NCBI GenBank assembly: GCA_025611195.1
Contig: GCA_025611195.1_4718.1
Origin: a phage
Length of the DNA: 64,000 nucleotides
Strand: one strand, 5' to 3'
The notes under the pieces were generated by a model. The model made no database searches, was not told where the DNA came from, and saw nothing but the letters and a program-made list of their open reading frames with translations. Shown piece by piece: positions 9,015-60,918 of this stretch. The stretch's first letter is position 1; every line of letters begins with the position of its first letter. The translations under genes were made by a program, and so were the position numbers.

Positions 9015-11573
9015 TTACTGCTCTTCACGTTCCAACAGATACTCGGAAGCGGTAATACCGTTTACCGTACGTACTGCTTTCAGACGAGTATCATCACTCA
9101 GAATCACGGTAACAGACTGCAGACCTTTTACTTTGGTCTCGAAGGTCTTGAATACCTGATCCAGCATACGAGCAATGCTTGGGTTGGTTGCAGCCGATGC
9201 GTGAGTGTAACCATTCTGGTTCAGCTTCAGAATCTTGGCGTTGGTTGGTACACGAAGAACAACATGCGGACGCATTGCGAACACACTGTGGTTAAACCAG
9301 TAAGCATCGTTACTATCTTCGTCGGTGACGATGTCTGGATTAACACGCATGTCTTCGGTAGCCGCGTCTGCCAAACGACGTTCGATTTCGTCAGCATCCA
9401 GAGAGCCGTCCTTCTCCAGTTCTGCACGATACTCACTCATGGCAACCAGATGACGTTCACGATTCGCTGCAGATTTTTCGTGAGCGGCTTTCAGGTAGTC
9501 ATGCATGTTGTACAGTTCTGCTATGGAAAGACGAATGTTCCACTGACCTTCGCCGTCACGATTGCAGTAGAGACACTTCAGCATGTTGACCCAGGTGTAG
9601 TAGCAATTGGAGAACTCATCTTCAATGAACTTTTGATCCATTTTAAGATCGTGAATCAGCCAACCGGACAGTTCTCCGATATCATCAACGAAGCTAGAGA
9701 TGGTGGTTTCAGAGAAGTTCTTCGGTACGATACGTTTGATCAGCTTGTTAACGTCTTTGGTCATGCTATCGTTCAGGAAATGCCAAATACGCAGAGGGAT
9801 GACGTCACGATACTGTTGCATGATCTGACGATAAGCTTTGATATCGTCGCTACGACCTTTATCAATAGACAACGCGTCCAGGAATTCATGGATAGCATCC
9901 AGCTCTTTGTCGGTATAGGTTCCCAGATAGGAATTGACCGTGGCAAGGAATGCTAATGCGTCGTTTTGGTTGACGTCAGTGTTGGTCTGCTGAATGATCG
10001 CTACTGCAGCTTTGGTTTCAGCATCCTCAACGCTTGACGCTGCGATCGCGTCGGTAACAGTAAACAGTTTCATTTCGCGCTGTTCGCCGACAACGATCGG
10101 TTCACGTTGAATCGGTTTGTTAAGACTAACGCGAACAACTTCTGCTTGCGCGATACGATCCAGTTTTACCATTTCCTGCTCTGCCATACGACGAGCGGTT
10201 GGATCTGATTCAAGTTCGATGTATTCCACTTCTTCCTCCGTGAGGGATGTAATGTCAACAATGGTTTCATGAAGAATTCCGTTTTCGTCGATACGTGCTC
10301 GACGAGCGAAGTGTCTGAAGTCATACAACGTTGGCCAGCGACAATTCGGCGCGTAGTCTTTGGCCTTCAAACGCATCTGCATAAATTCTTCATGTTGAAC
10401 AACACGACCGTAACGCTTAGCATCTTCGGTCGCATCAATTGGATTAACGGTCTTTGTTACCGTAGCGGAACGAGCCGTACGAATGGGTTCCGGTTTAGTC
10501 TGCACAGGTTCAGGTTGAACGGATTTCTGTTGTCCGGCCTTAACATGCCATTCGGGTTCTTCGTACCGTTCAGCAAATTGCTCGGCTGCTGCAAAGATAT
10601 CATTGATGCCACCAATATCTCCTTCTGGGTTCGTCGAATATACCCGTGGTTGCGGTGCCTCATAACGCGGCGCTGCGGTAGCAGGTGCGTCATTAACGAT
10701 AGGATCGTCATCACCAACATCGTACAAACGGTTGAACGCACAATCCTTCGAATCGATATACGATGGAGCTTGTGGTTGGATAACCGTCGGTCGAGGCTGT
10801 GCGCCGTATCCCGGCATTGTTGGAGCCATACCACGCATAACTGCCGGGTTAGGTTGGTATTGTGGTTGTGGGTAGGTTCCACCATACGTGGGATATGCGG
10901 GCTGTTGCGGTTGACCGTACCCACCGCCAACCATCGCATTTGCTTGCGGCCCACGGTAAGTCATCCCCAGTTGCATTACCTGCTGCTTCAGACCACGGGA
11001 CTTCTGCGCTATTTGCGCTAGACTCCCACTTTTATTTAGCTGCGTGTACTTATTCGCGGCTTCCGGGTTAATGCGCGATAATTCAATCGCACGATAATAT
11101 TCCGGGTATTGATTGGCTTCAAAGAGCCAGGTTACGAGGTGATACAGCGCAACTGTGCTCACAGCAGCAGAGACGATCTGGTCGTTGGACGCATTCTGCG
11201 GCATCGGGTTGATGTAAGAGAATACGTTCCAACAACAGTCTTCAACAAGCGATTCCATCATCATATCGTTATTGGTGTAACGTGCGACGAACTCGGTTTG
11301 TATTTTATCCTGTTGGGCGAAGTCTTTCAGGACATTGAAGACGGCTTGACGGATTTTGACGATCGTCGCTTCTTGGGTGATGAAGTTATAGTTCTGCTGA
11401 TATGATGGTTGTTGGTACTGTGGTTGTTGATAGGTGTTATTCGGGTATGCGCCGTACGGTGGTTGCTGGTACTGTTGCTGGCGAACCTGCTCAGCCGCAT
11501 AATTAATCGTGCTCGCATAAGGGTTTTCGCTGTAGCCCATTTGCTGATACATGTTGTTACTGCCATTATACAT
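9015..11573 (-). CDS. hypothetical protein (852 aa) with Gln/Tyr/Pro-rich low-complexity segments
   Basis: AAGGA SD before ATG 11573; N-terminal ~64 aa and an internal ~58 aa stretch (GGGYGQPQQPAYPTYGGTYPQPQYQP...) are Q/Y/P/G-rich. Confidence 0.8.
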   Translation of the reverse strand: MYNGSNNMYQQMGYSENPYASTINYAAEQVRQQQYQQPPYGAYPNNTYQQPQYQQPSYQQNYNFITQEATIVKIRQAVFNVLKDFAQQDKIQTEFVARYTNNDMMMESLVEDCCWNVFSYINPMPQNASNDQIVSAAVSTVALYHLVTWLFEANQYPEYYRAIELSRINPEAANKYTQLNKSGSLAQIAQKSRGLKQQVMQLGMTYRGPQANAMVGGGYGQPQQPAYPTYGGTYPQPQYQPNPAVMRGMAPTMPGYGAQPRPTVIQPQAPSYIDSKDCAFNRLYDVGDDDPIVNDAPATAAPRYEAPQPRVYSTNPEGDIGGINDIFAAAEQFAERYEEPEWHVKAGQQKSVQPEPVQTKPEPIRTARSATVTKTVNPIDATEDAKRYGRVVQHEEFMQMRLKAKDYAPNCRWPTLYDFRHFARRARIDENGILHETIVDITSLTEEEVEYIELESDPTARRMAEQEMVKLDRIAQAEVVRVSLNKPIQREPIVVGEQREMKLFTVTDAIAASSVEDAETKAAVAIIQQTNTDVNQNDALAFLATVNSYLGTYTDKELDAIHEFLDALSIDKGRSDDIKAYRQIMQQYRDVIPLRIWHFLNDSMTKDVNKLIKRIVPKNFSETTISSFVDDIGELSGWLIHDLKMDQKFIEDEFSNCYYTWVNMLKCLYCNRDGEGQWNIRLSIAELYNMHDYLKAAHEKSAANRERHLVAMSEYRAELEKDGSLDADEIERRLADAATEDMRVNPDIVTDEDSNDAYWFNHSVFAMRPHVVLRVPTNAKILKLNQNGYTHASAATNPSIARMLDQVFKTFETKVKGLQSVTVILSDDTRLKAVRTVNGITASEYLLEREEQ
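10754..10930 (-). other. Gln/Tyr/Pro/Gly-rich low-complexity coding segment
   Basis: Encodes GGGYGQPQQPAYPTYGGTYPQPQYQPNPAVMRGMAPTMPGYGAQPRPTVIQPQAPSY within 9015-11573; a similar segment occupies the N-terminal ~64 codons (about 11380-11573). Coordinates approximate. Confidence 0.6.
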
Positions 11574-11608: not shown

Positions 11609-13405
11609 TCAATCGATTATGTCACGATCGTTAATTTCTACAATTTCTTCATCGAATCGACCGACGTCTTTCTTCAAGCCTGCATTTGTTGCTGCAACGT
11701 CATTTGCGATTTGTGGGGTAATGATTAACCGACCGCGTTCATCGATAGGTGCGTACATACTGAACTTCTGACGTCCGGTTGGTTCGGAGTGTGGAAGATT
11801 CAGATAGCTTGCGCAGAACGGGATGGAACCACTCACCAAACGACTCTCGTCAGCCAACGCAGCACCGCCTGCATTTTGGCTCTGGAGAACAACATGCGTG
11901 CTCACTTTGAACAGCATGCAATCGCCCGGTGACTGAATCGATGTTGCCACTTTCTCACGCTTATCACGATTGCTCTGGATATTGAGAATCGCTTCCGTTG
12001 CAACTTGATTGCGCAACGCCTTCTGTACATCGCGATTGGTCATCTCTTTACGGTTGTTCTGTCGTTTACCACGTTCCGTGGTTTTAAGATGGAACCCCAG
12101 TTTAAAGATGCTTTTACGCACATCCTCCATGACGTATTCCAACACCATCAATTCCTTACCGAACATCGTCGTGGTATCAACACGACTCATTTCGATAGTA
12201 ACGTTGTCAATCAGATACGCCATAAATTCGTAGAAGTCGTCGCAAGGAATATTTTCCTGTTTGAACTTCTTCTGTTGAATTTCATCAACGTAAAGATCGA
12301 GACTGTCGATGTGGTGGTTTACATCACGCAACAAACGCGCATCCGCATTGTTGTTATTAAAGATAATCAAACCGAGTAATGTACGCCAATGGTCTGGCGC
12401 ATTAGCGAACTCTTCAACCGGATAGTCTTCCGGGAAACGATCGTAATAACGGTCGATGAGATATAAGAACGCGCCGACAAGGCCAAGAACAATACGTTCC
12501 GTACCTCCACGTCTTACAGCGATTTGAATATCGGGATGTTTATAACGTACAGCGTTAGCGCTACGGCTTTTACCGCTTTTGCTGATACTAAAGCCTTTAG
12601 GAATAACCCCCATGGTGCGATAGATTACCCATTGGTCGCGCGGAAAATCGCGTTCAGCAAGATTCCGTCCGGTGACGGCTTCGACGCCAGCAAAACGTCG
12701 GAAACATTCACCCACCCCATACTTCGCAAAGAGATAGTGACCCAGTGTGGTTACGCTGGTGTGGTTGATGTTGTCACCGTTCACTTTACTTTGTTTGGTA
12801 AGATGATAGATTTGCGACCAGGGTAACGACAGGTAATGACGATAATCGATACCCGTTGGTGTATCATTGCTCAGGAACTGATACGGTGTACGTTTAACCG
12901 TGATTTTGTCACGCGGAAGCATGATGAACGCCATGTCTTTCGTGTAACTGATTACAGGGTCAGCGAGCACTGCACTGAGAATGAAGTTCGCACCACGTAG
13001 ACGCATTTTACCACCCTGACCTACCGCGGGCAATAGGAGAGGATGTCGGATAATGCAGTAGTCCTTTCCTGGTTCGCGGCGGTCACCTGATTCCATCGCA
13101 CCATACCAGCGGAATTCTAGCATCACCATAAACACGTCGGAAGGTGCAAGGTCGAAGGTCAGCTTACCGCTATCCTTCCCTTTGGTTTTCTTTCCTCCGC
13201 TTAAGTAGTGGAACTGTTCGCGGGCCATACAACGACGCAGGCCATGATACACCAGATCCTTAGGTAAACTATCTTTGCTGTTCCGCCAAAGACGATCAAC
13301 ATAGGACTCAACATCTTGCATCTTATCGACGACGATGTTGCGTGCTATCTTCTCGTTCATCTTCGGTGCAAGCTCAGCGACAGCTTTGCAGAATCTAGGA
13401 TCCAT
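11609..13405 (-). CDS. hypothetical protein (598 aa)
   Basis: AAAGGAG SD before ATG 13405; no P-loop or polymerase motif recognised. Confidence 0.8.
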   Translation of the reverse strand: MDPRFCKAVAELAPKMNEKIARNIVVDKMQDVESYVDRLWRNSKDSLPKDLVYHGLRRCMAREQFHYLSGGKKTKGKDSGKLTFDLAPSDVFMVMLEFRWYGAMESGDRREPGKDYCIIRHPLLLPAVGQGGKMRLRGANFILSAVLADPVISYTKDMAFIMLPRDKITVKRTPYQFLSNDTPTGIDYRHYLSLPWSQIYHLTKQSKVNGDNINHTSVTTLGHYLFAKYGVGECFRRFAGVEAVTGRNLAERDFPRDQWVIYRTMGVIPKGFSISKSGKSRSANAVRYKHPDIQIAVRRGGTERIVLGLVGAFLYLIDRYYDRFPEDYPVEEFANAPDHWRTLLGLIIFNNNNADARLLRDVNHHIDSLDLYVDEIQQKKFKQENIPCDDFYEFMAYLIDNVTIEMSRVDTTTMFGKELMVLEYVMEDVRKSIFKLGFHLKTTERGKRQNNRKEMTNRDVQKALRNQVATEAILNIQSNRDKREKVATSIQSPGDCMLFKVSTHVVLQSQNAGGAALADESRLVSGSIPFCASYLNLPHSEPTGRQKFSMYAPIDERGRLIITPQIANDVAATNAGLKKDVGRFDEEIVEINDRDIID

Positions 13406-13444: not shown

Positions 13445-14881
13445 TTACTTTTTCGATGACGTCTTCTCAAGAATCTTGAAAAAGGTCATACCTATACCGA
13501 CAACGGCCGCAGTTATACTCGCAGCGGCTTTCCAAACATCGACGTTACGTTGACGTCGCGCTTCTTCCGCTTCACGTTGTCTTTTTGCCTCTTCATCACG
13601 TCGACGTATCTCAGCAGCAAACTCGTCGTGCTTACGTTTGGCTTCTTCGTCTCGACGACGAAGTTCAGCGACGAATTCTTCATGTTTGCGTTTGGCCTCG
13701 TCATCACGACGTTTTAAATCAGCTTGATAATCTTCGTGTATTTGTCTACGTAGATCATCTTGACGTTTCATTTCGGCTTGGTGTTGTTCCATCCTACGTT
13801 TTGATTCGTCTCTAAGCTGATCGAGTTCGGCTTTGTGTTGTTCATCGCGCAGCTTTGCGTCGGCGCGATGCGCTTCGTGCATCTGTGCGATAACCGCCTT
13901 GTGTTCATCCGCCATACGCCGCATTTCAGCCATCACCCCTTTAAGGGTTTCTTCTGATGACTTACGTTCATAGCTACGCTGGTCGAAATCATTTTTGTAG
14001 GCTTCTTTTTGGATGGGGTCGCGCCAATGCAATGCCGATTCACGTGTCGGAAAAACATTATACTTCCACATCTCTTTTTCCAAATCTTCGACCGGTACGA
14101 AGACGGAGTCGTTATTCCCGAAGGTAACCAACATACCTGGCGCGCCTGCTCCATTCGTTGGTTTTATTTCGAACGCTTTCCCCAGCACGTTAACCCATAG
14201 GCTATACGGATTATGAAAGTCGGGCGGCGTCCAATGGATAGTGAGTTGCGTTCCGAGAATCCGGAAACCCTCTGTCTTTCCTGTCAAGCTCCGCGCACAT
14301 GTTGCGATGTAGGGGTGATCAATCCCTTTCGTAACATGGTCTGCGCTTTTGTATTCTCCTTTAACTTTTACGATTGCCACGTTGATTTGCGCGACATAAA
14401 TAGGTTGATTAAAGTTCAACGTGTTGAGGTCAATTTGACATATCTCATCCAGCGTATCGTACCAGTCTTGCTGGTCTAATAGACGCGGTATTTTCTCTGT
14501 GTTAACGGTGCGATGGATATGCGGTTTCCTTATCGCATAACCGGTGCCGTTTTTAACGCGGAGTATATCCCGACGTCTACCCGCGTAGACGAAGTTTCTG
14601 AATGCACCATTCGCATTAGATATGTCATGGCTGTCAACTATTACAGGACTACGAAATTTTGAACGTCGTACGATCCTGAATGTATTGCCGTCCTCAACTC
14701 TACCAGGAATGTACTGGAACATATTGTCGGAGGTGATAACCAACACGGTATGGCCGGATTCATTAATACATGCCCACCCTAATTCCAGGTCATACAACGG
14801 TTCAGCATAACCGTCAATGCGATATGCGTGCGTACCATCCCACGGTTCGAACGCGGTATCACATATTGGCATGGAGGGCAT
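13445..14881 (-). CDS. tail-anchored coiled-coil membrane protein (putative)
   Basis: Track start TTG 14887; GGAGG SD then ATG at 14881. C-terminal third is charged repeats (RRRDEEAKRKH-EF-AE) followed by a hydrophobic segment ITAAVVGIGMTFFKIL near the C-terminus. Confidence 0.75.
   Translation of the reverse strand: MPSMPICDTAFEPWDGTHAYRIDGYAEPLYDLELGWACINESGHTVLVITSDNMFQYIPGRVEDGNTFRIVRRSKFRSPVIVDSHDISNANGAFRNFVYAGRRRDILRVKNGTGYAIRKPHIHRTVNTEKIPRLLDQQDWYDTLDEICQIDLNTLNFNQPIYVAQINVAIVKVKGEYKSADHVTKGIDHPYIATCARSLTGKTEGFRILGTQLTIHWTPPDFHNPYSLWVNVLGKAFEIKPTNGAGAPGMLVTFGNNDSVFVPVEDLEKEMWKYNVFPTRESALHWRDPIQKEAYKNDFDQRSYERKSSEETLKGVMAEMRRMADEHKAVIAQMHEAHRADAKLRDEQHKAELDQLRDESKRRMEQHQAEMKRQDDLRRQIHEDYQADLKRRDDEAKRKHEEFVAELRRRDEEAKRKHDEFAAEIRRRDEEAKRQREAEEARRQRNVDVWKAAASITAAVVGIGMTFFKILEKTSSKK
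13553..13714. repeat. three degenerate tandem copies of a 54-bp unit inside the coiled-coil gene
   Basis: Units 13553-13606, 13607-13660, 13661-13714 (about two thirds identical by eye), each encoding an 18-aa RRRDEEAKRKH-EF-AE-type repeat. Confidence 0.6.
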
Positions 14882-15028
14882 CGTCAACCTCCATCAGATT
14901 GAAAACTATCACGCATAATGCATTTCCCTTTTCTTGTTCTTATCAAGCCGACAGCCGACGGTTTCAGCATCGTCCCTAGCGCGAGAACGACCTTACGTGT
15001 TGTCTATGCCTTATTAATCGCAGGCGTC

Positions 15029-15056
15029 TGTCACCTAGGTAATGTAAGCGTCAAAT
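15029..15056 (-). promoter_or_regulatory. diverged copy B of the promoter-like motif (TACATTAC variant)
   Basis: Minus strand reads ...GACGCTTACATTACCTAGGTGACAG; shares the ATTACCTAGGTGA core; upstream of gene 13445-14881. Confidence 0.35.
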
Positions 15057-15089
15057 TTTTTCTATTTATAACGATAAACGGCATAGAAA

Positions 15090-15119
15090 CCTCCCCCAAC
15101 CCTTACGGGCTGAGGGAGG
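15090..15119. terminator. GC-rich hairpin downstream of the capsid gene
   Basis: cctccc-cc-aa-ccc-ttac-ggg-ctga-gggagg; flanked by CATA (15082-15085) and TATG (15126-15129). Confidence 0.55.
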
Positions 15120-15218
15120 CTGACTTATGTATCACGGTGCCGGATGAATGTCCGGTGCAATGAAACCATCCGCAACGTTGTCGTCAAGAATATCATCCAA
15201 CGAAGCAGCTACGGTAGT

Positions 15219-17441
15219 TCAGTTAGTCTGAACCGGCAGCTTGATGTTTTCAGTGTAGACCTTACGCAGGTTCACAACGTTAATCAGACCCAGCAGCGGG
15301 CAGTTGTTAACGAAGCGGCAGCGAGGCTGAACCATGGTTTCTTTAGAAACCTGACCGTTACGGGTAACCTGAGCAACAGATACCAGTTCCGGTACATACA
15401 GGAACATACCGAAGGTCAGCGGATCCGGAGAACCCTGGATACCACGAGACAGGGTCACGAAGATCTTATCACGCAGCAGGACGTTCGGGTTATCTACAAC
15501 CACGAAGTTGAAGCTTACACCAACGGTACGGAAATCACCATCGGTCTGCAGGAACTGCGGGATGTAGTTGTCGGTTGCTACTACGCAACGCGGTTTCTCA
15601 TCAGCGTTGGAAGACAGCAGCTGCAGAGCTGGCTGATAACCAGACTCGGAGTACATGCGATATGCCATCTCACGAATCACGTTCATGATCGCAGCGGACA
15701 CTTCGGCACGACGTTCTGCAGTGGTGGTACCCTGAACAGATTTCGCCAGGTCCAGATTGATTTCTTCGAACCACGGACGGATCAGGTAACGACCGAAACC
15801 TTCGATCTGGATATCACCGAACTGACGGAAGCGAGAGGTCGCAACCGCTTTCAGTGCATCTTTGTAGCTGAACAGTTTCTCAACCATCAGGTTGTCGAAA
15901 CGTGCGTTAGCAGCTTGGATCAGAACGTCCAGGTCAGCAGCGTTTTCTTCCCAATCCAGCGGACGAGGAATAGAGAACGGAGCCAGCAGGCCGATTGCGT
16001 AACGTTCTTGCTTCATGTTGAAGTCAAGGTGTTTACCACGTTCACGACGGTTGCTGTTGTTACGGCGAATACGCAGTTCGTAACCAACCAGTTTGAAGCT
16101 CAGGTCGTCAGCCAGGTCTTTAAATTCTTGGCTCTTACGCGGCTGTTCGATGTTGTCCTGATCAACCAGGCGATACAGTTCAGCGTTAGCACCGTTAACA
16201 CGCAGACCTGCTTTCTCTACGTTGGAAGAACCGTAAACTTCGATAGCCAGCTGAGCAGCAGATTTCGCATCGATGATGTCCTGCAGCGCTTCAGCTTTCG
16301 CGCCTTTAACGTCAACGGTGTTCTCATCAACGAAGATGGAGTGGGTGTCGAACGCCAGGGTCATTTTGCGGAAGTCGCCTTCCAGGGATTTCTGGAAACC
16401 GTTGGTAATCAGACCGGATACGTCGAACGGAACGTAAGAGGTCTTGCTGTGCTTGGCTGATTTGATTTCCACCAGGATTTTGGTCAGCGTGATCTGAGCA
16501 TCCAGCGCGTCGGTGTTGTCGCTGTAACCGTTAGCCAGAATGCTATCGTCTTCAGCGATACCGATCATGTCGATCAGTTTATCAACAGCCAGGTAAGACG
16601 TTTTGTAAGTTACGCCTTTGATCTCGATGTCGCGCGGAGCAACGATAGTTTTGTCAACGAAGTACTGCGCGTTAGCATCGTCAGCACGATAGATCGGATG
16701 CAGATCGGTCACGTCGTTGGACAGAACGTCGTTGTACATGAACGCATCCAGCAGCGGACGACGTACCCAATCAGCCGGAGTACCGTCAGCGTTACGACGC
16801 AGGTGGTTGAACACCAGCGGACGACGGAAAGATACATCATAACCGATCTGGTTCGGAGCCAGAACGATGGTGTTGTACAGTTCGTTACCCATGCGGCTCA
16901 GACGAGAAGCCTTCACGTTGAACACAACGGAGTACGGCATCATGTCACGCAGTTCTTTCTGGTCGTAGGACAGCTGAACCAGTTCTTCAGATTCGCAACC
17001 GCAGGAATCAGCAGCCATCATGACGAAGTTAGAGCTGTCAACTTCACGGCCAGACGGAGTGGTGCTGATGTTCATGGAACGTGCTTGTTTAGCATATTCC
17101 ACCGGGTTGCCATGAGCCAGCATGATCAGTGCTGCTGCACGAGCCTGCTGTGCGTTCATGGTGAACAGCTGTTCTTCAATACGCTGCTTCTCTTCCGGAG
17201 TGGTGGTTTCGAAGCCCAGCATGGACAGAACCGGTTCTTCTGCTTTACGGATGTCGCTGCTGAAGCTCTTAACATCCATATCGTTAACCAGTTTGTCCAT
17301 GGATTTGAAATCAACCTTAGAAGCAGATTCCATAGACAGGAAGGTGTTCTCCAGACCTTTGTCTGCTGGTTTGCTACCATTAGCGGTCAGGAACTGGCGA
17401 GTGGCCGCGACCTGTTGGCTAAGAAGGGTTTTATCATTCAT
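15219..17441 (-). CDS. putative major capsid protein (740 aa, phiKZ-like size class)
   Basis: AAAGGA SD before ATG 17441; codon usage strikingly different from neighbours (CTG, CGT, GGT, AAC, ACC, TTC dominate), consistent with very high expression. The antisense track ORFs 15144-16460 and 16698-17444 are by-products of that bias. Confidence 0.55.
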   Translation of the reverse strand: MNDKTLLSQQVAATRQFLTANGSKPADKGLENTFLSMESASKVDFKSMDKLVNDMDVKSFSSDIRKAEEPVLSMLGFETTTPEEKQRIEEQLFTMNAQQARAAALIMLAHGNPVEYAKQARSMNISTTPSGREVDSSNFVMMAADSCGCESEELVQLSYDQKELRDMMPYSVVFNVKASRLSRMGNELYNTIVLAPNQIGYDVSFRRPLVFNHLRRNADGTPADWVRRPLLDAFMYNDVLSNDVTDLHPIYRADDANAQYFVDKTIVAPRDIEIKGVTYKTSYLAVDKLIDMIGIAEDDSILANGYSDNTDALDAQITLTKILVEIKSAKHSKTSYVPFDVSGLITNGFQKSLEGDFRKMTLAFDTHSIFVDENTVDVKGAKAEALQDIIDAKSAAQLAIEVYGSSNVEKAGLRVNGANAELYRLVDQDNIEQPRKSQEFKDLADDLSFKLVGYELRIRRNNSNRRERGKHLDFNMKQERYAIGLLAPFSIPRPLDWEENAADLDVLIQAANARFDNLMVEKLFSYKDALKAVATSRFRQFGDIQIEGFGRYLIRPWFEEINLDLAKSVQGTTTAERRAEVSAAIMNVIREMAYRMYSESGYQPALQLLSSNADEKPRCVVATDNYIPQFLQTDGDFRTVGVSFNFVVVDNPNVLLRDKIFVTLSRGIQGSPDPLTFGMFLYVPELVSVAQVTRNGQVSKETMVQPRCRFVNNCPLLGLINVVNLRKVYTENIKLPVQTN

Positions 17442-19934: not shown

Positions 19935-20261
19935 TTAACTTATCGTCATAAATTCGCTTGGTGAGAATTTCCAACCATTCTCATTGAGAAGTGTGTTGAG
20001 TTTCGCTGCGACGATAAGCCATGCATGCATAGCCGTTATGTCGTATTGGCGATTCACTCGACGTTGGTTTTCGATATTGATTTGCTCCTGTTCAGTGATG
20101 TTTGGATAGAGTGAGATAGCGCTGGGCTTACCCAACGCGCTAGTCATCACCGCAGTACATTCACTGATAATGTTGTTTAAGTGGTAGTTGTATACCGTTC
20201 CACGCATGACGCGATGACGGCATTCGATAATAGCGTCGTAAATGATTTCTCGAGTAATCAT
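19935..20261 (-). CDS. hypothetical small protein (108 aa)
   Basis: ORF between hairpin 19888-19919 and the next gene; weak SD. Confidence 0.55.
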   Translation of the reverse strand: MITREIIYDAIIECRHRVMRGTVYNYHLNNIISECTAVMTSALGKPSAISLYPNITEQEQINIENQRRVNRQYDITAMHAWLIVAAKLNTLLNENGWKFSPSEFMTIS

Positions 20262-20267
20262 GATAAC

Positions 20268-20669
20268 TTAAAACATACGTTCGTTTTTAGCACGTGCGGC
20301 CATTACCAGATCGTAGATACCCGCGGTTCGTAAACATTCGTCGTAGTAACGATGTGCGCCTTCCTCAGCCATCCATGATAACCCACGACTATCCGCAACA
20401 ATAACCAATTTGTTATTGTTGAATGCACACACAACACGGTAAGTCGCGTTGTTATTCGGATCGCGAGTGATCAGTTCATAGACACCGTTAACAGGTTTAC
20501 TGAATTCGCCATTTAACGGGACGAGTTCGGTAGTACCTTCAGCAAACGTTACGTTGATCGGAGAAGGATCTTTAGCGATAACAGTATATTCCACATTGTG
20601 TTCTTTACTGGTCATAATGCCGAAGTAAGAACTGATAGGAGAACGCGGTACACTAAGAATATTAAACAT
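20268..20669 (-). CDS. hypothetical small protein (133 aa)
   Basis: Track ORF extends to 20771; AGAGGA SD precedes in-frame ATG at 20669. Confidence 0.6.
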   Translation of the reverse strand: MFNILSVPRSPISSYFGIMTSKEHNVEYTVIAKDPSPINVTFAEGTTELVPLNGEFSKPVNGVYELITRDPNNNATYRVVCAFNNNKLVIVADSRGLSWMAEEGAHRYYDECLRTAGIYDLVMAARAKNERMF

Positions 20670-20739
20670 GAAAGTTGTCCTCTTAATTGGATATAAATTG
20701 TTGAGTTTGTGATTGGGAAATGAAAACGTTGTTTCGGTT

Positions 20740-21312
20740 TTAGACGATGAGTGACCAGGTGGTAAGCACACCGCTTGCGAATTCGAGCTTAAGACGTTTA
20801 CCGATAAGTTGTTGTTGAATCATCTTTTCAGTGATACGTCGATCTTGCTGAACCGCTTTATCAAACGCTTCTTTCGCTTCGGCTTGGTAGAAGTTCGTTT
20901 CTTCGTTGTCGTCGATCTCTTCGAGAGCGTCATCGTCGATGTCAGCAAGTTTCACTCGACCGTTTTCATCAGGTTGTTCTGCAGGCTCATTGTCATAAGG
21001 CGTGTCTTTTGTTGGTGCGACACGATGATGCAACTCGACCTGTGTTAACATGATCTCCATCTCACCATCGATAGGGATGATTTCATCGGCGCAGCCGTTT
21101 TCGGTCAGCTCTCGACTTTCCAGTAATGTCGTGGTGACAGAGAACACCTCTTCAACAGGAACCTCATCATCGTCGATAGTGTTAACCGTATTGCTGGTAA
21201 CTTCGGCAACGACCATCAAATCGAATGCGTGAGGATCACCTGGCATTTTGATTCCTGGAAGTTTGTTGAGGTACCAAGGATCGAGAATCATGATTTCTGG
21301 ATTAAACATCAT
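20740..21312 (-). CDS. hypothetical acidic protein (190 aa)
   Basis: GAAAGG SD before ATG 21312; Asp/Glu-rich. Confidence 0.65.
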   Translation of the reverse strand: MMFNPEIMILDPWYLNKLPGIKMPGDPHAFDLMVVAEVTSNTVNTIDDDEVPVEEVFSVTTTLLESRELTENGCADEIIPIDGEMEIMLTQVELHHRVAPTKDTPYDNEPAEQPDENGRVKLADIDDDALEEIDDNEETNFYQAEAKEAFDKAVQQDRRITEKMIQQQLIGKRLKLEFASGVLTTWSLIV

Positions 21313-21383
21313 TTTACCTTTCTATGTTAGGTGGATTGCGGATAGAAGAATCAATGCATAAACTAATTTAAGTTTGTTAAGGT

Positions 21384-22286
21384 TTACTTAGCCTTTGAGT
21401 TATGCGGACTAACATGCTGTTGTACTCGTTGGATTGTATCGTAGTACGGGTTAGATTGGTTGAACATGTTGTTGTGTGGGGGATAGCCATATGGCGCATT
21501 TTGCCTTGTTGGTGAGAAACCTTGTTGAGAAGGACGGTTTGAATTAACCGCGAGTACGTAGTAAACCAAATTTTGACGGTCGAATGTTCCTTCGTTTTTG
21601 AAAGTGTCGGCGTAGGCTTTTACCGCTGGAGTGAGCCTATCACCATCGGCTGTAATAATTGTACCGTCTGGGTAAACTTCCCGAACGACGCACCATGTTC
21701 CGATGAGAACATCTTTAGGTGCTGTATTACCATATCCGGTTGTAACGGTAAGGTAAGTATCGAACCCTTCAGAACAACAAGGATGACGATAGATGGGTCC
21801 TGTCATTTCCGTTCTATCGGTATCGCTACATTGTTCTATTGAGAGCGATGATGTGTCGGTTTTGAAATTGTCAAATTCTTTCTTTAAGTCGATTACGGGT
21901 TCTTTCGTATAGTACTTCTTGATTGCTTTGACGTAAAGATCAGGAACGGTTGTCAGCAATCCGTTATACCTGATTCTCAGGTTTTCGAGTAATCCAAAGA
22001 TGCTCGCGCATGCCTGTTCGCGAGGTTTTGTAAGATAAGAGATCCCCTCAGGAACGCTGGGATCTTTGAGAAAGAAGATTGCGTTATTGTCGTTGTGCGA
22101 TGCGTTGAAGAAAACGATTGATTCGATATATACGGAGCATAGGCTGTCATTGGCGTCGTCAGATAACACCCAGATGCACTCATCGGTCGTCTTGTTTAAA
22201 AGTTCTGTTTTGTCGACCAAACGTTGTTTCATTGCGAGGAAATGTGCCTGTTGTTCAGCAGTTAATTCACGATAAATAGTGGTCAT
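21384..22286 (-). CDS. hypothetical protein, Cys-containing paralog of 22372-23145
   Basis: AAGGAG SD before ATG 22286 (track start 22364). Shares (G/K)PIY(R/I)HP(C/E)C...YL(T/T)(V/I)T.G...REVYPDG(T/R)I with the upstream gene. Confidence 0.7.
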   Translation of the reverse strand: MTTIYRELTAEQQAHFLAMKQRLVDKTELLNKTTDECIWVLSDDANDSLCSVYIESIVFFNASHNDNNAIFFLKDPSVPEGISYLTKPREQACASIFGLLENLRIRYNGLLTTVPDLYVKAIKKYYTKEPVIDLKKEFDNFKTDTSSLSIEQCSDTDRTEMTGPIYRHPCCSEGFDTYLTVTTGYGNTAPKDVLIGTWCVVREVYPDGTIITADGDRLTPAVKAYADTFKNEGTFDRQNLVYYVLAVNSNRPSQQGFSPTRQNAPYGYPPHNNMFNQSNPYYDTIQRVQQHVSPHNSKAK

Positions 22287-22331
22287 GTTGGGCTCCTTGA
22301 TTACGATAAGGATGATTGCGGTTTTGTGGGT

Positions 22332-22364
22332 TTGGTAGGGCCCTAAACAAAGGAACCCTACCAA
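22332..22364. terminator. hairpin between the two Cys-containing paralogs
   Basis: ttggtaggg-(15-nt loop)-ccctaccaa, 9-bp stem. Confidence 0.4.
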
Positions 22365-22371
22365 TATTAGG

Positions 22372-23145
22372 TTAATCAGGATCGGCGTAGAAATGGTGAG
22401 GATAGCCGGAGTACGATCCTGCGTTACCGGCTATGGATTCTTTCTGGGAATCGACGACGAGCGCATAGAACTGTCGGGAATTTGTTAGCGTTGAGAAATA
22501 AGCGGAAAGGACTTTTTCATTCAATGCATCACAAGGTAGGCAGGTGCGACCGCAAAACGTCACGATACGGCCGTCAGGATAGATCTCACGAATCATTCTC
22601 CACTCACCGATATCCACTGGTGATGGCGCTGCTACACCACCTGTTATCGTTAAGTAACGATCGTACGTGGTATGGCATTCAGGATGAATATAGATCGGCT
22701 TGTTCGTTTCGACAGGTTCCGAAGTATCTCGACGACTAAGAAGCTCAACGACTTCAAGATAAATCGTTGGTAGATCGCGGAGAATACCGGTGCTACGACG
22801 TTTCTTTGTGATTCGCGGACGAATCTCGTTGAGAGCGTATTCGAGCTTACGTTCAGCTTCGTACGCATCGAGTTTTATCAAGCGACCCGGTTCATCGGAA
22901 TGATCCTGAGTTACGTAAACGAAATACGTGTCGCCTTTTGCAGCGTGAAAGATTCGAGCGACCTTAAATGTTTCTACGGTACGATAACCAAGGCGCGATT
23001 GATTTTCCACAGGAGAAAATATCCAATGCCGTCCTTCGTCAGCCTCAACAATTTCGTTGAAACTATCTGTCTGTTCTGGGACCTGGTAGTCAGCCAGTAA
23101 TGTGTCGAGAGCATCATCAGCCAGTTTGATGTAAATATCTGTCAT
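22372..23145 (-). CDS. hypothetical protein, Cys-containing paralog of 21384-22286
   Basis: GAGGA SD before ATG 23145; C-terminal KPIYIHPECHTTYDRYLTITGG...IREIYPDGRIVTFCGRTCLPC. Confidence 0.75.
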   Translation of the reverse strand: MTDIYIKLADDALDTLLADYQVPEQTDSFNEIVEADEGRHWIFSPVENQSRLGYRTVETFKVARIFHAAKGDTYFVYVTQDHSDEPGRLIKLDAYEAERKLEYALNEIRPRITKKRRSTGILRDLPTIYLEVVELLSRRDTSEPVETNKPIYIHPECHTTYDRYLTITGGVAAPSPVDIGEWRMIREIYPDGRIVTFCGRTCLPCDALNEKVLSAYFSTLTNSRQFYALVVDSQKESIAGNAGSYSGYPHHFYADPD

Positions 23146-23178
23146 GTTTGTATCCTCGGTTATTAAGAGAAATTTACA

Positions 23179-23204
23179 GTGATAACAGTAAGCGTTGTTA
23201 TCAC
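23179..23204 (-). promoter_or_regulatory. hairpin overlapping the 3' end of motif copy A
   Basis: gtgataaca-gtaagcgt-tgttatcac, 9-bp stem. Confidence 0.4.
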
Positions 23205-23230
23205 CTAGGTAATATAGTCGCGAAATAAAC
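23199..23230 (-). promoter_or_regulatory. conserved promoter-like motif, copy A (contains TATATTAC on minus strand)
   Basis: Minus strand reads AGTTTATTTCGCGACTATATTACCTAGGTGATAA; about 65 nt upstream of ATG 23145. Confidence 0.5.
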
Positions 23231-23259
23231 TGGAGTAATGCGCTTAAGACAGCATAAAC

Positions 23260-23291
23260 CCCTCTCCCAACCCGTCAGGGAAGGGAGAGGG
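23260..23291. terminator. GC-rich hairpin (CCCTCTCCC family)
   Basis: ccctctccc-aa-ccc-gtca-ggg-aa-gggagaggg; immediately after the stop of 23296-24663. Confidence 0.6.
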
Positions 23292-23295
23292 AATA

Positions 23296-24663
23296 TTAAA
23301 CGGTTGGACGAACGGTATTGTCTTTTTCTGGTGCGATCCATAACGTGACCGTACCATGGCATGTCCACTGTGGTTCACGTACAGAAGAACCCGCCATCGT
23401 TACAGCGCAATCGGTACGCATGATGACCCCATATGCTTCGCAGAGGTTGTTATCCTGCATCCACACAACTTTAGCGGGCATACCGGGATACAACAGATCC
23501 ATGTTTGCGTATTCCCACACCAACTGCATTGTTCTACCGCGTAATCCAGCAGTATTGCTTATTTCACGCCATCGGTTATCGGTTACGCGTCCCATCCCTT
23601 TCGCCACCTTCACGTTATCGCTACGCTCTTCAGTTACGTACTCGCTAACGTTTACGGTACGACTGATTATGGTATCGCCCCCCTTTGATAATGTCATCCC
23701 CTGACTCATCTGACTTGCCGAAACAAAACGCCCACCCGCATTACCTAACAACGAAGCCGCGTTATTGACGTCGCTTACCGACGCCCCTCTCGTACATGCA
23801 ATTTCCACGTATTTGTCGCGATTGATCCAGGTCTTGTCCATACCCGGAAACATATCGGCAGGATAGTTGTAAAAGATAGCTGTACGTCGACCGTCAGAGA
23901 AACGGGTTTCGTCGTATAAGGGGTAGATATACAGATACGGGGATTGATAATAACAACCGACATCTGCTGAATAAATACCAACCTGGTTCTGGATTTTATC
24001 TACGAGATCCATCGCATTGGTACCGTGTGGAAGAATAAGCAACTTGAATGGGTTGTCGTTATTCGGTGCAACGATATCCACACCCTGCATTTTGAATCCG
24101 GTGTCAGCTTCAACCGCAGAAAGTATCTTGCTGAATTCAAGGCGCAACACATCCAGCACTTTCGATCCAGTATAGTTCTCACCGGTTTCTGATTGCATGA
24201 AGCTTTCAAGAACAGGATCGAACAGTTGAAATTGAAGATCGACCATTTGTTCGTAGTCTTTCTTCGAAGAATCGGTTGCGGTACGTTCGTCGGTAGCAGA
24301 CATACGACTGTCTACGGTTGTTAAACAGACCGCCCGGTAGACATAAGCCTGTGCGGCATCGTCTACGGTTTGGCGTTGTCCGCGCATCAGGCTGTACGCC
24401 TGCACGATGATGCGCATTTTAAGTTGTTGTTGGTACGGTAGAATGTATTTTCCGTAACTGCCTGGTGGAAACTTTACAGAGATATAAAGTTCATCCCCTG
24501 CGTTACGTTCATAGTCTCGATACGTGTGGACTTGAGTCACTAAAGGAACAGACACCGTCATTGACGGCGTGATTAATTCCGCGGTGACTTTATACGCAAC
24601 AGCAACAGCTTCCTGCGCAAACGTACCGATATACCGTCCTAACGGCGTCTGTTTGTAATCCAT
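23296..24663 (-). CDS. hypothetical protein (455 aa), first visible gene of a six-gene operon, possibly structural
   Basis: Long ORF; 3-nt gap to the next gene; no catalytic motif. Confidence 0.8.
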   Translation of the reverse strand: MDYKQTPLGRYIGTFAQEAVAVAYKVTAELITPSMTVSVPLVTQVHTYRDYERNAGDELYISVKFPPGSYGKYILPYQQQLKMRIIVQAYSLMRGQRQTVDDAAQAYVYRAVCLTTVDSRMSATDERTATDSSKKDYEQMVDLQFQLFDPVLESFMQSETGENYTGSKVLDVLRLEFSKILSAVEADTGFKMQGVDIVAPNNDNPFKLLILPHGTNAMDLVDKIQNQVGIYSADVGCYYQSPYLYIYPLYDETRFSDGRRTAIFYNYPADMFPGMDKTWINRDKYVEIACTRGASVSDVNNAASLLGNAGGRFVSASQMSQGMTLSKGGDTIISRTVNVSEYVTEERSDNVKVAKGMGRVTDNRWREISNTAGLRGRTMQLVWEYANMDLLYPGMPAKVVWMQDNNLCEAYGVIMRTDCAVTMAGSSVREPQWTCHGTVTLWIAPEKDNTVRPTV

Positions 24664-24665
24664 GT

Positions 24666-25271
24666 TTAACGACCCCGTTGCTGTTGTTGAATGATGAATT
24701 CTTCGATCTTCGTGCCACGGAATTCGCTGTGACGAACTGCTTGCAGCTGCTCTTCAACGGTTGGACCAGCGTGGAGACCACCACGACGTGCACGGTTGAT
24801 GCCGATGCGACGACGTTGACCGATTTCACGCAAACGTGAAGATAATCCGCTCATTTCGGTTGGGTCTTTAATACGACCGCGTGCAACGTTCCACAGACCA
24901 CCCATGAACTCTTCGAGAATACGACTGGCTTCGAGAGATGGTACGCGTGCGTTAGGATCGTTTTCGAGATTGTATTTAACGTATTCCGTGTGTTCCAGAA
25001 GAAGCATGAACATCTTCATGGCGTTCACGTCAGGATTTGCAATACGCATAGGGACACCACGAGAATGCTTCTCAGCAGCCTGCGGTACGGTGAGCTGTGC
25101 GGGCACCTCTTCGTTCATGGTCATATCGTCGATTTCTGCAACCCCTGAAGAGTAGACACCGCTGACCTCATTGGTGTAATTGTCCACCATGAATTTACGG
25201 GGAATCCAGAATTCGAATTTACGTTCAAATAGACGTTTGGTTGGAGTATCTTTAACGTGTTGTAGACTCAT
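24666..25271 (-). CDS. hypothetical protein (201 aa)
   Basis: 4-nt overlap with the upstream gene (translational coupling). Confidence 0.7.
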   Translation of the reverse strand: MSLQHVKDTPTKRLFERKFEFWIPRKFMVDNYTNEVSGVYSSGVAEIDDMTMNEEVPAQLTVPQAAEKHSRGVPMRIANPDVNAMKMFMLLLEHTEYVKYNLENDPNARVPSLEASRILEEFMGGLWNVARGRIKDPTEMSGLSSRLREIGQRRRIGINRARRGGLHAGPTVEEQLQAVRHSEFRGTKIEEFIIQQQQRGR

Positions 25272-60867: not shown

Positions 60868-60895
60868 GGTGATAAGATATCTTGCTCTTATCACC
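60868..60895 (-). promoter_or_regulatory. hairpin overlapping the 3' end of motif copy C
   Basis: ggtgataaga-tatcttgc-tcttatcacc, 10-bp stem; stem differs from copy A by paired substitutions. Confidence 0.4.
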
Positions 60896-60918
60896 TTAGT
60901 AATATAGTCGTGAAATAG
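60889..60918 (-). promoter_or_regulatory. conserved promoter-like motif, copy C (contains TATATTAC on minus strand)
   Basis: Minus strand reads AGTCTATTTCACGACTATATTACTAAGGTGATAA, about 29 of 33 positions identical to copy A; upstream of ATG 60823. Confidence 0.5.

Follow-up and report, generated by a model that had tools for sequence, protein, structure and literature searches.

A repeat-expanded, putatively tail-anchored variant of the phiKZ gp122 core protein family in a Goslar-like nucleus-forming phage

Background

What does a protein with a long, repeat-built helical stalk and a hydrophobic C-terminal end do in a phage, when its gene lies between those for the major capsid protein and an RNA polymerase subunit? 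This question is raised by an open reading frame (ORF) at positions 13445-14881 (minus strand) of a 64,000-nucleotide stretch of phage DNA (GenBank assembly GCA_025611195.1, contig GCA_025611195.1_4718.1), which is referred to below as the window. Judging from its sequence, the source of the window is closely related to Escherichia phage vB_EcoM_Goslar, one of the nucleus-forming jumbo phages (Chimalliviridae). Most of the core genes of such phages have no known function, and two steps of their infection cycle that depend on membranes are unexplained, namely the passage of the genome from a lipid vesicle into the protein nucleus and the assembly of capsids on the inner membrane. It has been reported that the lipid early-infection (EPI) vesicle is the site of early transcription and, late in infection, is still joined to the surface of the nucleus (PMC10541120), and that the inner membrane is where capsids are put together (PMC12908238). 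In the literature surveyed, no phage-encoded membrane protein was named for either the vesicle-to-nucleus hand-over or inner-membrane capsid assembly.

The analysis presented here shows that the window gene is a divergent ortholog of phiKZ gp122 and 201phi2-1 gp202, which belong to a core family of the chimalliviruses, and that its product has acquired a stalk of variable length made of 18-residue repeats. The reading that we prefer, to which we assign a probability of roughly 55%, is that this product is a tail-anchored membrane tether that faces the cytoplasm and carries its binding domain on a spacer.

Results and Discussion

The ORF is intact and encodes 478 amino acids followed by a stop codon. 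Its start codon, an ATG at 14881, stands 6 nucleotides after a ribosome-binding site, GGAGG, that was read off the sequence (14888-14892, minus strand, as are all features of the gene given below). Goslar_00040, a hypothetical protein of phage Goslar, has the same start, and the two genes are 96.7% identical in nucleotides and 98.1% identical in amino acids. Alignments and AlphaFold2 delimit an N-terminal, beta-rich globular domain (residues 1 to approximately 295; 13997-14881), which is followed by a juxtamembrane-type motif, KNDFDQRSYERKSSEE (residues 296-311; 13949-13996), that appears in ortholog alignments as KD.[FY]E.RS..RKDSSE. A charged, proline-free alpha-helical stalk (residues 312-450; 13532-13948), recognized by its composition and by AlphaFold2, leads to a C-terminal hydrophobic helix, KAAASITAAVVGIGMTFFKIL (residues 451-471; 13469-13531), a putative tail anchor identified by hydrophobicity and alignment, and the translation ends with the short tail EKTSSKK (residues 472-478; 13448-13468). 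The layout that the initial annotation had described, with an N-terminal domain, a stalk made of a charged helix and one hydrophobic helix at the C-terminus, is thus upheld and recurs in distant orthologs. The N-terminal domain, for which about 330 residues had been proposed, is globular and comprises only about 295 to 310 residues.

The head contains the motifs N40-x-S42 (INESGH), H189-P190 and F277-x-T-x-E-x-A283. Its AlphaFold2 model has a mean predicted local distance difference test score (pLDDT) of 52, and only residues 211-290 reach 73-86, which corresponds to fair confidence. No conserved residues of a catalytic type were seen in the family alignments, in which the invariant positions are one Asn and a few Gly, Pro and Ala residues. 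A clear match to a soluble enzyme family, which would have spoken against a membrane-tethered factor, was looked for and was not found. Pfam gave no significant family for the protein at all; the match to FUSC (E 0.024) and matches of the coiled-coil type were compositional.

The hydrophobic segment near the C-terminus that was noted in the initial annotation was recovered with two scales. Segment AASITAAVVGIGMTFFKIL (residues 453-471) is by far the most hydrophobic of the protein, with a Kyte-Doolittle 19-residue mean of 1.76 (the classical threshold is 1.6), and the position-independent summed cost of the helix on the Hessa scale is +2.8 kcal/mol, while every other 19-residue window costs at least 9.6 kcal/mol. 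No second segment of this kind exists in the protein, and the one present lies within approximately 30 residues of the C-terminus, with a tail of only 7 residues behind it. One face of the helix is conserved, since A452, I456, V460 and G464 are invariant in the Goslar group. The N-terminus, MPSMPICDTAFEPWDG, is polar rather than hydrophobic, and there is no signal peptide. With a C-terminal anchor and a non-hydrophobic N-terminus, the head and the stalk would therefore be cytoplasmic, and this tail-anchored layout without a signal peptide implies that insertion would have to be post-translational. A comparable layout is found in the host, where the stress proteins ElaB, YqjD and YgaM of E. coli, which are bacterial tail-anchored proteins of approximately 100 amino acids, have one transmembrane (TM) segment at the C-terminus with a very short tail in the periplasm, a cytoplasmic part that is helical, and no signal peptide. 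However, they have neither a large head nor a repeat stalk, and no similarity in sequence to them was found.

The terminal helix is not peculiar to the window protein. Five close variants, 85-98% identical to it, share the same terminal helix, and TM-like terminal helices with 0-10 residues after them are also found in the orthologs from Eowyn, FLC9, RSL2, PhiEaH1, PCH45 and SEGD1. In nine lineages the terminal helix passes the classical hydrophobicity threshold with 0-10 residues following. The orthologs from Centimanus, 2050HW and pTD1 have cationic amphipathic terminal helices instead, with hydrophobic moments of 0.52-0.57, and a cationic amphipathic helix is the other classical device for membrane targeting. 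The comparison suggests that the common denominator of the family is usually, though not universally, a terminal membrane-targeting element.

The assignment to this family was derived from three lines of evidence. For the profile comparison, one alignment was made of the Goslar-type family, one of the syntenic proteins of 11 chimalliviruses, and a combined one of 15 proteins, that is, the window protein, three close relatives and the 11 orthologs. Comparison of the first two by hhalign gave a probability of 97.2% and an E value of 3.4e-11 over 228 columns of the head domain. Secondly, 11 of the 15 proteins in the combined set matched PHROG 7727, which the window protein itself matches weakly (E 1.1e-4); this and the related PHROGs 7286 and 15024 are all annotated as "unknown function". 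Thirdly, when the head model was compared with BFVD by Foldseek, all 27 matches at E <= 1e-3 were uncharacterized chimallivirus proteins, including 201phi2-1 B3FJ64 and proteins of Eowyn, PhiEaH1 and RSL2, with the best E values at 1e-8 to 1e-9. Therefore, the window gene is a divergent ortholog of phiKZ gp122 and 201phi2-1 gp202, and the whole of 13445-14881 was assigned as a complete gene, orthologous to Goslar_00040, on the basis of the ORF together with the profile and fold comparisons.

Sequence searches at shorter range returned few proteins. BLAST and tblastn against phage genomes found Goslar only, and the gene was not present in any of 5,426 complete E. coli RefSeq genomes. A HMMER search with the head domain against 1.84 billion representatives yielded just three clusters at 50% identity, namely the Goslar type and those of two proteins of 413 (P0016) and 406 (P0017) amino acids, and two further homolog searches with mixed alignments added almost nothing. 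Both of these proteins keep the overall layout, in which a head is followed by a charged helix and then by a hydrophobic terminal helix with a basic end (KK, or a single K in P0016), and both genes are located between those for the capsid protein and the polymerase subunit. The stalk of P0017 is of the plain textbook ER/K type, without 18-mers.

The position of the gene is likewise conserved. In other chimalliviruses the equivalent slot is occupied by a protein of 310-390 amino acids of unknown function, which is phiKZ gp122, PhiPA3 gp138, Eowyn gp144, SPN3US-like SEGD1 gp077, FLC9 gp91, PhiEaH1 gp214, 2050HW gp040, pTD1 gp064 or its counterpart in PCH45, RSL2 and Centimanus. The syntenic block consists of a divergent DnaB gene on the opposite strand, a small gene, the capsid gene, the window-type gene, the RNA polymerase subunit gene and a large ORF of unknown function, which encodes approximately 720-850 amino acids in most cases. 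The full order is common to Goslar, the related locus L002, phiKZ, PhiPA3, Eowyn and SEGD1, and it is also seen in locus L018 up to the end of the contig and in PCH45 from the window-type gene onward. The proteins share an invariant Asn in N-x-[ST], HP[YF], F-x-T-x-E-x-A at the end of the head, and the KD.[FY]E.RS..RKDSSE motif. The slot is not organized identically everywhere, as two overlapping ORFs are annotated in it in phiKZ (gp121 and gp122; L005:4494-5985) and PhiPA3 (gp137 and gp138; L008:3447-4989), and SEGD1 has an additional ORF, gp076; these small upstream ORFs showed no similarity to the Goslar protein. The "gp122" of the Churi paper is a different PhiPA3 protein and not a member of this family.

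Despite these shared features, which include the head homology, the locus, the motifs and a helical segment with a terminal hydrophobic or amphipathic helix, the window protein differs from phiKZ gp122, 201phi2-1 gp202, PhiPA3 gp138 and SPN3US-type gp77 in several respects. It is 100-170 amino acids longer, and the identity of the heads is only 11-18%. Furthermore, the helical region of the other members precedes the RKDSSE motif, and the motif abuts the anchor. For instance, in RSL2, FLC9, PhiEaH1, PCH45 and SEGD1 the motif is followed immediately by the terminal TM-like helix (for example, RKDSSEMWKFIPTVVMGAGAAIVALKSLFSN), whereas approximately 135 residues of repeat helix separate the two in the window protein. 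This displacement of the motif indicates that the repeat stalk is a lineage-specific insertion or expansion.

The stalk has an unusual composition (residues 313-448), with 27% acidic residues (D/E), 27% basic residues (K/R), 13% Ala, 17% large hydrophobic residues (LIVMFYW) and no Pro. AlphaFold2 predicts one continuous helix over residues 310-475 with a pLDDT of 72-90, and if fully extended the stalk (residues 312-450) would be approximately 21 nm long, with a range of approximately 18 to 25 nm among its variants. The three repeats of 18 amino acids or 54 base pairs that the initial annotation placed at 13553-13714 correspond to residues 390-443 and are the last and clearest units of a longer array, with the pattern [KR]RRD[DE]EAKR[KQ][HR][ED]E[FA][VAE]A[ER][LIR]. 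By repeat search and autocorrelation, this array comprises about seven units (residues 318-443; 13553-13930). Tandem Repeats Finder reported no array in the gene because the copies are too diverged in DNA (only 67-70% identical). A second repeat search method detected 3 x 54 nucleotides at 13583-13744 and weaker copies at 54-nucleotide spacing up to 13876. The periodicity was also measured: the protein identity at a lag of 18 over residues 311-450 was 0.377, against 0.103 +/- 0.027 in 5000 shuffled sequences, none of which reached the observed value, and the DNA autocorrelation had maxima at 54, 108 and 162 nucleotides.

What had been taken for a charged coiled-coil stalk is a charged helix, but a canonical heptad coiled coil is not supported. 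The hydrophobic period of the stalk is 3.62 residues, compared with 3.5 for heptads, and both the a/d periodicity of 3.5 and the dense apolar core of a canonical heptad coiled coil are absent; a weak regular stripe, formed in each unit by F14, L18, A7 and H11, recurs every 18 residues. The stalk does have the charge pattern of an ER/K helix, as 54% of its residues are charged and opposite-charge pairs at i/i+3 and i/i+4 are enriched (0.57 per residue, compared with 0.29 +/- 0.04 once the stalk is shuffled). This is the pattern expected from sequence for a single alpha-helix (SAH) stabilized by salt bridges. The stalk resembles ER/K SAH spacers and 18-residue (11+7) non-supercoiled repeats in its charge, salt bridges, lack of Pro and period of 3.6, and also in changing its length by whole turns of 18 or 11 residues. 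It differs from SAH spacers in retaining the weak stripe and 17% hydrophobic residues, and the stripe leaves room for lateral pairing or dimerization along the stalk.

Relatives obtained from a search of 5.8 billion proteins made it possible to compare the stalk between isolates. The close relatives have 460, 478, 489 and 507 amino acids, and two distant ones have 413. In the alignment, all length differences among the close relatives are within the stalk, in blocks of 18, 18 and 11 residues, and in the DNA of the 507- and 460-residue variants the corresponding insertions and deletions are exactly 54, 54 and 33 base pairs. The expectation that repeat number might vary between isolates was thereby borne out. 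A pair of 18-nucleotide direct repeats, 54 base pairs apart and 94% identical, was found by repeat search at 13772-13789 and 13826-13843, and these repeats, of the form GAACAACAC[A/C]AAGCCGAA, flank the exact 54-base-pair unit that is missing from the 460-residue form. Direct repeats around a deletion are a signature of slippage or unequal recombination between units, which would be the probable source of the variation judging from these sequences. Since 18 residues make five helical turns and 11 residues make three, each of the observed changes preserves the helical phase.

The rate of change differs along the stalk. The distal part evolves fastest, with 66% identity in a relative (P0003) whose head is 98% identical, and the 33 membrane-proximal residues evolve slowest, with 67% identity in a 413-residue relative (P0015) whose head is only 30% identical. 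This membrane-proximal segment, FAAEIRRRDEEAKRQREAEEARRQRNVDVWK (residues 418-450; 13532-13630), is the best conserved part of the protein in the alignment. The conserved stalk end and the invariant helix face make the stalk end and the anchor look like a specific interface, and the remaining stalk like a spacer.

Based on these features, the following mechanism can be envisaged for the window protein as a membrane tether. The C-terminal helix (residues 451-471) would be inserted post-translationally into a membrane that faces the cytoplasm, which could be the inner membrane or the EPI vesicle that arises from it. The head, rich in beta structure, would remain in the cytoplasm as a binding module, carried by a stiff alpha-helical stalk with stabilizing salt bridges. 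This stalk would have been enlarged in the Goslar lineage between the juxtamembrane motif and the anchor by tandem duplication of the 54-base-pair (18-residue) unit, and unequal recombination or slippage may keep changing it in steps of 18 residues (five turns) or 11 residues (three turns) with its phase kept. The protein could thus hold a phage structure approximately 10-25 nm from the membrane.

Several observations weigh against this reading. The helix is only moderately hydrophobic, with 17 apolar or small residues between K451 and K469 and the Hessa sum of +2.8, and the tail that would need to cross the membrane has a net charge of +2 (+3 with K469). The phiKZ and PhiPA3 orthologs, which are those with functional data, have C-termini that contain acidic residues and do not look membrane-spanning. 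In addition, the knock-down and transposon phenotypes of phiKZ 122 described below may be polar on the adjacent polymerase gene 123. Lastly, the class of the promoter discussed in the next paragraphs is assigned by analogy, and with its T-to-C change the motif might be recognized differently, or no longer, by the virion polymerase.

The question of when the gene is expressed bears on what the tether might hold. Upstream of the gene lies that for the phiKZ-type major capsid protein (15219-17441, minus strand; PF25620, E 1.6e-217), and the gap between the two is 337 nucleotides. Folding of this region revealed a terminator-like hairpin of 15 base pairs with a GUAA loop after the capsid gene (15088-15121, minus strand); the surrounding 64-nucleotide segment (15072-15135) has a minimum free energy of -32 kcal/mol and a z score of -5.2. 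By sequence comparison, a T-run and TATGCCG directly follow the hairpin (15078-15089, minus strand), so that the hairpin is succeeded by TTTCTATGCCG and, approximately 35 nucleotides further, by TACATTACCTAGGTGA (15031-15046, minus strand). The latter, which is located 150 nucleotides before the ATG and was recognized by its conservation, is a variant of TATATTAC-N6-G and resembles an early promoter. A scan for sigma-70 promoters and terminators found nothing relevant and also missed the strong hairpin seen by folding; for sigma-70 promoters, a blank is expected in a phage with its own polymerases.

The 16-mer is present in all six loci compared (the window, Goslar, L016, L017, L002 and L018) as TACATTACCTA[GA][GT]TGA, with L018 differing at 2 of the 16 positions, and the hairpin is present in five of them (all except L017). 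The sequence of the stem varies between loci and yet stays paired, that is, it covaries, while the 16-mer is nearly invariant; TACATTAC-N6-G is conserved over three lineages with only approximately 28% protein identity. The diverged promoter-like motif pointed out upstream of the gene by the initial annotation is therefore real, and its T-to-C difference from the canonical form is conserved along with it. Two copies of the canonical form occur in the window as TATATTACCTAGGTGA (23201-23216) and TATATTACTAAGGTGA (60891-60906), which together with the motif upstream of the gene gives three matches where 0.35 are expected, and each canonical copy follows a hairpin and TTTATGCTG and precedes an orphan gene without a PHROG match. 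The composite element, made of a GC-rich hairpin, a T-run with TATGC[CT]G, an AT-rich spacer of approximately 35-45 nucleotides and TA[TC]ATTAC-N6-G, thus occurs three times on the minus strand of the window (15031-15135, 23201 to approximately 23290 and 60891 to approximately 60960), and its parts resemble a terminator with late-type (TATG) and early-type promoter motifs behind it. It has been reported that the consensus of early promoters of phiKZ-like virion RNA polymerases is AT-rich and that transcription starts 6 nucleotides downstream of it, the AR9 form being TATATTAT-N6-G, and that TATG is the late-promoter motif of phiKZ, read by the non-virion RNA polymerase (PMC5312081). The TATATTAC-N6-G form matches this description of virion RNA polymerase early promoters. 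In the leader of the 507-residue variant (L016:1112-1500), there is in addition an insertion of approximately 51 nucleotides, found in neither the window nor Goslar, that contains two short palindromes, CCTTCTTGACGATATCAAGAAGG and TGACGCAAAGCGTCA.

Downstream, the gene for a beta-like subunit of the non-virion RNA polymerase, a homolog of phiKZ gp123 (11609-13405, minus strand; phrog_2943), begins 39 nucleotides past the stop codon of the window gene, and a terminator scan found no terminator between the two. These features suggest that the two genes are co-transcribed from the early-type promoter, possibly with extra late expression. The polymerase subunit gene is followed by one for an 852-residue protein (9015-11573, minus strand), which has no Pfam or PHROG match, corresponds in position to phiKZ gp124 and may cooperate with the window protein. 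The knock-down of phiKZ 124 likewise disturbs phage transcription (PMC12571901).

The experimental data on the family cited here are from phiKZ. Literature searches found nothing relevant on Goslar gp40, on chimalliviruses in combination with transmembrane proteins, or on tail-anchored proteins and the phage nucleus. In phiKZ, gene 122 is classed as "uncharacterised core genome", and both antisense oligomers directed at it lower plaque formation (scored +; PMC12571901, main text and supplementary file 5). Its knock-down is among the few that strongly alter phage transcription at 30 min, the others being those of ChmA, polymerase subunits, PicA, 124 and 151 (PMC12571901). In transposon insertion sequencing, PHIKZ120-124 had no insertions, compared with 8616 reads in PHIKZ125 (PMC12676376, supplementary file 2). 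Taken at face value, phiKZ 122 appears to be essential.

Which structure the window protein would hold is speculative as a whole. A role at the stage of the EPI vesicle and the nascent nucleus, for example in tethering the vesicle to the shell of ChmA (chimallin), is a tentative proposal, and we favour it slightly over a role with procapsids on three grounds, namely an early-type promoter in common with the polymerase subunit, the restriction of the family to chimalliviruses and the transcription phenotype in phiKZ.

In the principal competing reading, the protein is an anchor or nucleation point for proheads that assemble at the inner membrane, on its cytoplasmic side, with the stalk setting the distance between shell and membrane, and this tethering of procapsid assembly is a somewhat less probable alternative. 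In its favour, the major capsid gene directly precedes this gene in most of the chimalliviruses examined. The capsid terminator is followed by a late-type TATG motif, and phiKZ 122 appears essential (PMC12676376, supplement). Moreover, published cryo-tomography, in which no tethering factor is named, shows partial capsids on the inner membrane (PMC12908238). However, a strong terminator parts the gene from that of the capsid protein, and the early-type promoter motif would drive it together with the polymerase subunit gene; adjacency is weak evidence when the syntenic block also has a helicase and a polymerase subunit. It was also the phage transcriptome at 30 min that was strongly altered by the knock-down of phiKZ 122, and the capsid gene was not among the named knock-downs with strong effects (PMC12571901). 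Phage T4, whose head initiation is bound to the membrane and involves the portal protein gp20 with gp40, offers a possible functional analogy only, in that head assembly starts at the inner membrane. There is no sequence or structural relationship to gp20 or gp40, nor is there evidence that the window protein binds a portal.

It is also conceivable, though rather unlikely, that the protein is not a membrane protein, and that its terminal helix serves oligomerization or partner binding in a soluble, elongated factor of gene expression. The non-virion RNA polymerase subunit and the large protein encoded downstream would be its partners, with a similarly low likelihood. The main support for such a factor comes from the phiKZ and PhiPA3 proteins, whose C-termini include D, E and K and do not resemble TM segments. 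The conservation of the membrane-proximal stalk and of one helix face in the manner of a protein interface would also fit, and transcription is disturbed by knock-down of either neighbour of polymerase gene 123, phiKZ 122 or 124 (PMC12571901). That phenotype can be explained by polarity, however, and the terminal helices above the hydrophobicity threshold in nine lineages, 0-10 residues from the end, speak against a soluble protein. The three cationic amphipathic termini fit membrane targeting better than a common protein interface. In addition, it is not obvious where a protein with a 20-nm stalk and an exposed hydrophobic end would fit inside the nucleus, in which the polymerase acts.

The spanin-like, lysis or superinfection-exclusion function suggested by the initial annotation, for which the anchor-like helix with a long charged helix and a repeat-number variation reminiscent of an arms-race gene might speak, is very improbable, as the topology is opposite to that of i-spanins, no lysis genes are nearby, 478 amino acids are far too many for a holin, the variable part is a spacer and not a recognition surface, and the family is a syntenic core family whose phiKZ member appears essential (PMC12571901; PMC12676376). 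Membership in the known classes was considered individually. An i-spanin has an N-terminal TM segment, a periplasmic coiled coil and a partner lipoprotein, and holins and exclusion proteins are small accessory proteins. The window protein shares with the i-spanin Rz a membrane helix and a long charged helical region; it has neither the N-terminal anchor and periplasmic coil of Rz, nor its need for an o-spanin lipoprotein, nor its place in a lysis cassette, as its anchor is C-terminal and its N-terminus polar. No ORF with a signal sequence and lipobox, as expected for an o-spanin, was embedded in or adjoined the gene. The profile of a small, dispensable accessory protein is likewise at odds with a 478-residue member of a syntenic core family whose phiKZ ortholog is without transposon insertions (PMC12676376, supplement).

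Two further observations concern these phages more generally. Goslar-type copies of the gene (P0004, P0006, P0012, P0013 and P0014) have been deposited under isolate assemblies of Salmonella enterica (serovar Panama and others) and of E. coli O157, on contigs that reach approximately 244 kb, which is the scale of a phage genome. This suggests that the isolates carry, or are contaminated by, Goslar-like phages, and that the host range includes Salmonella. Elsewhere in the window, only 62% of positions 20000-24700 align to Goslar, with 94% identity in the aligned part, and the window phage therefore appears from its sequence to carry other accessory genes than Goslar in this stretch, which is located downstream of one early-type promoter motif.

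Conclusions

New in this work is a lineage-specific, repeat-expanded variant of an essential-looking, uncharacterized core protein. Members of the phiKZ gp122 family usually carry a helical spacer and, at the very end, a membrane-targeting helix, which makes the family a concrete candidate for the membrane-dependent steps of infection by nucleus-forming phages. It is possible, although we regard it as tentative, that this core protein, specific to chimalliviruses, links the EPI vesicle or inner membrane to the nascent ChmA nucleus or to the procapsid and acts as a helical "ruler" tuned by 18-residue repeats. If this is true, the vesicle-to-nucleus (or membrane-to-capsid) step of nucleus-forming phages would for the first time have a named membrane component. 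The natural variation in repeat length provides a built-in experiment on spacing, in an E. coli phage system that is genetically tractable.

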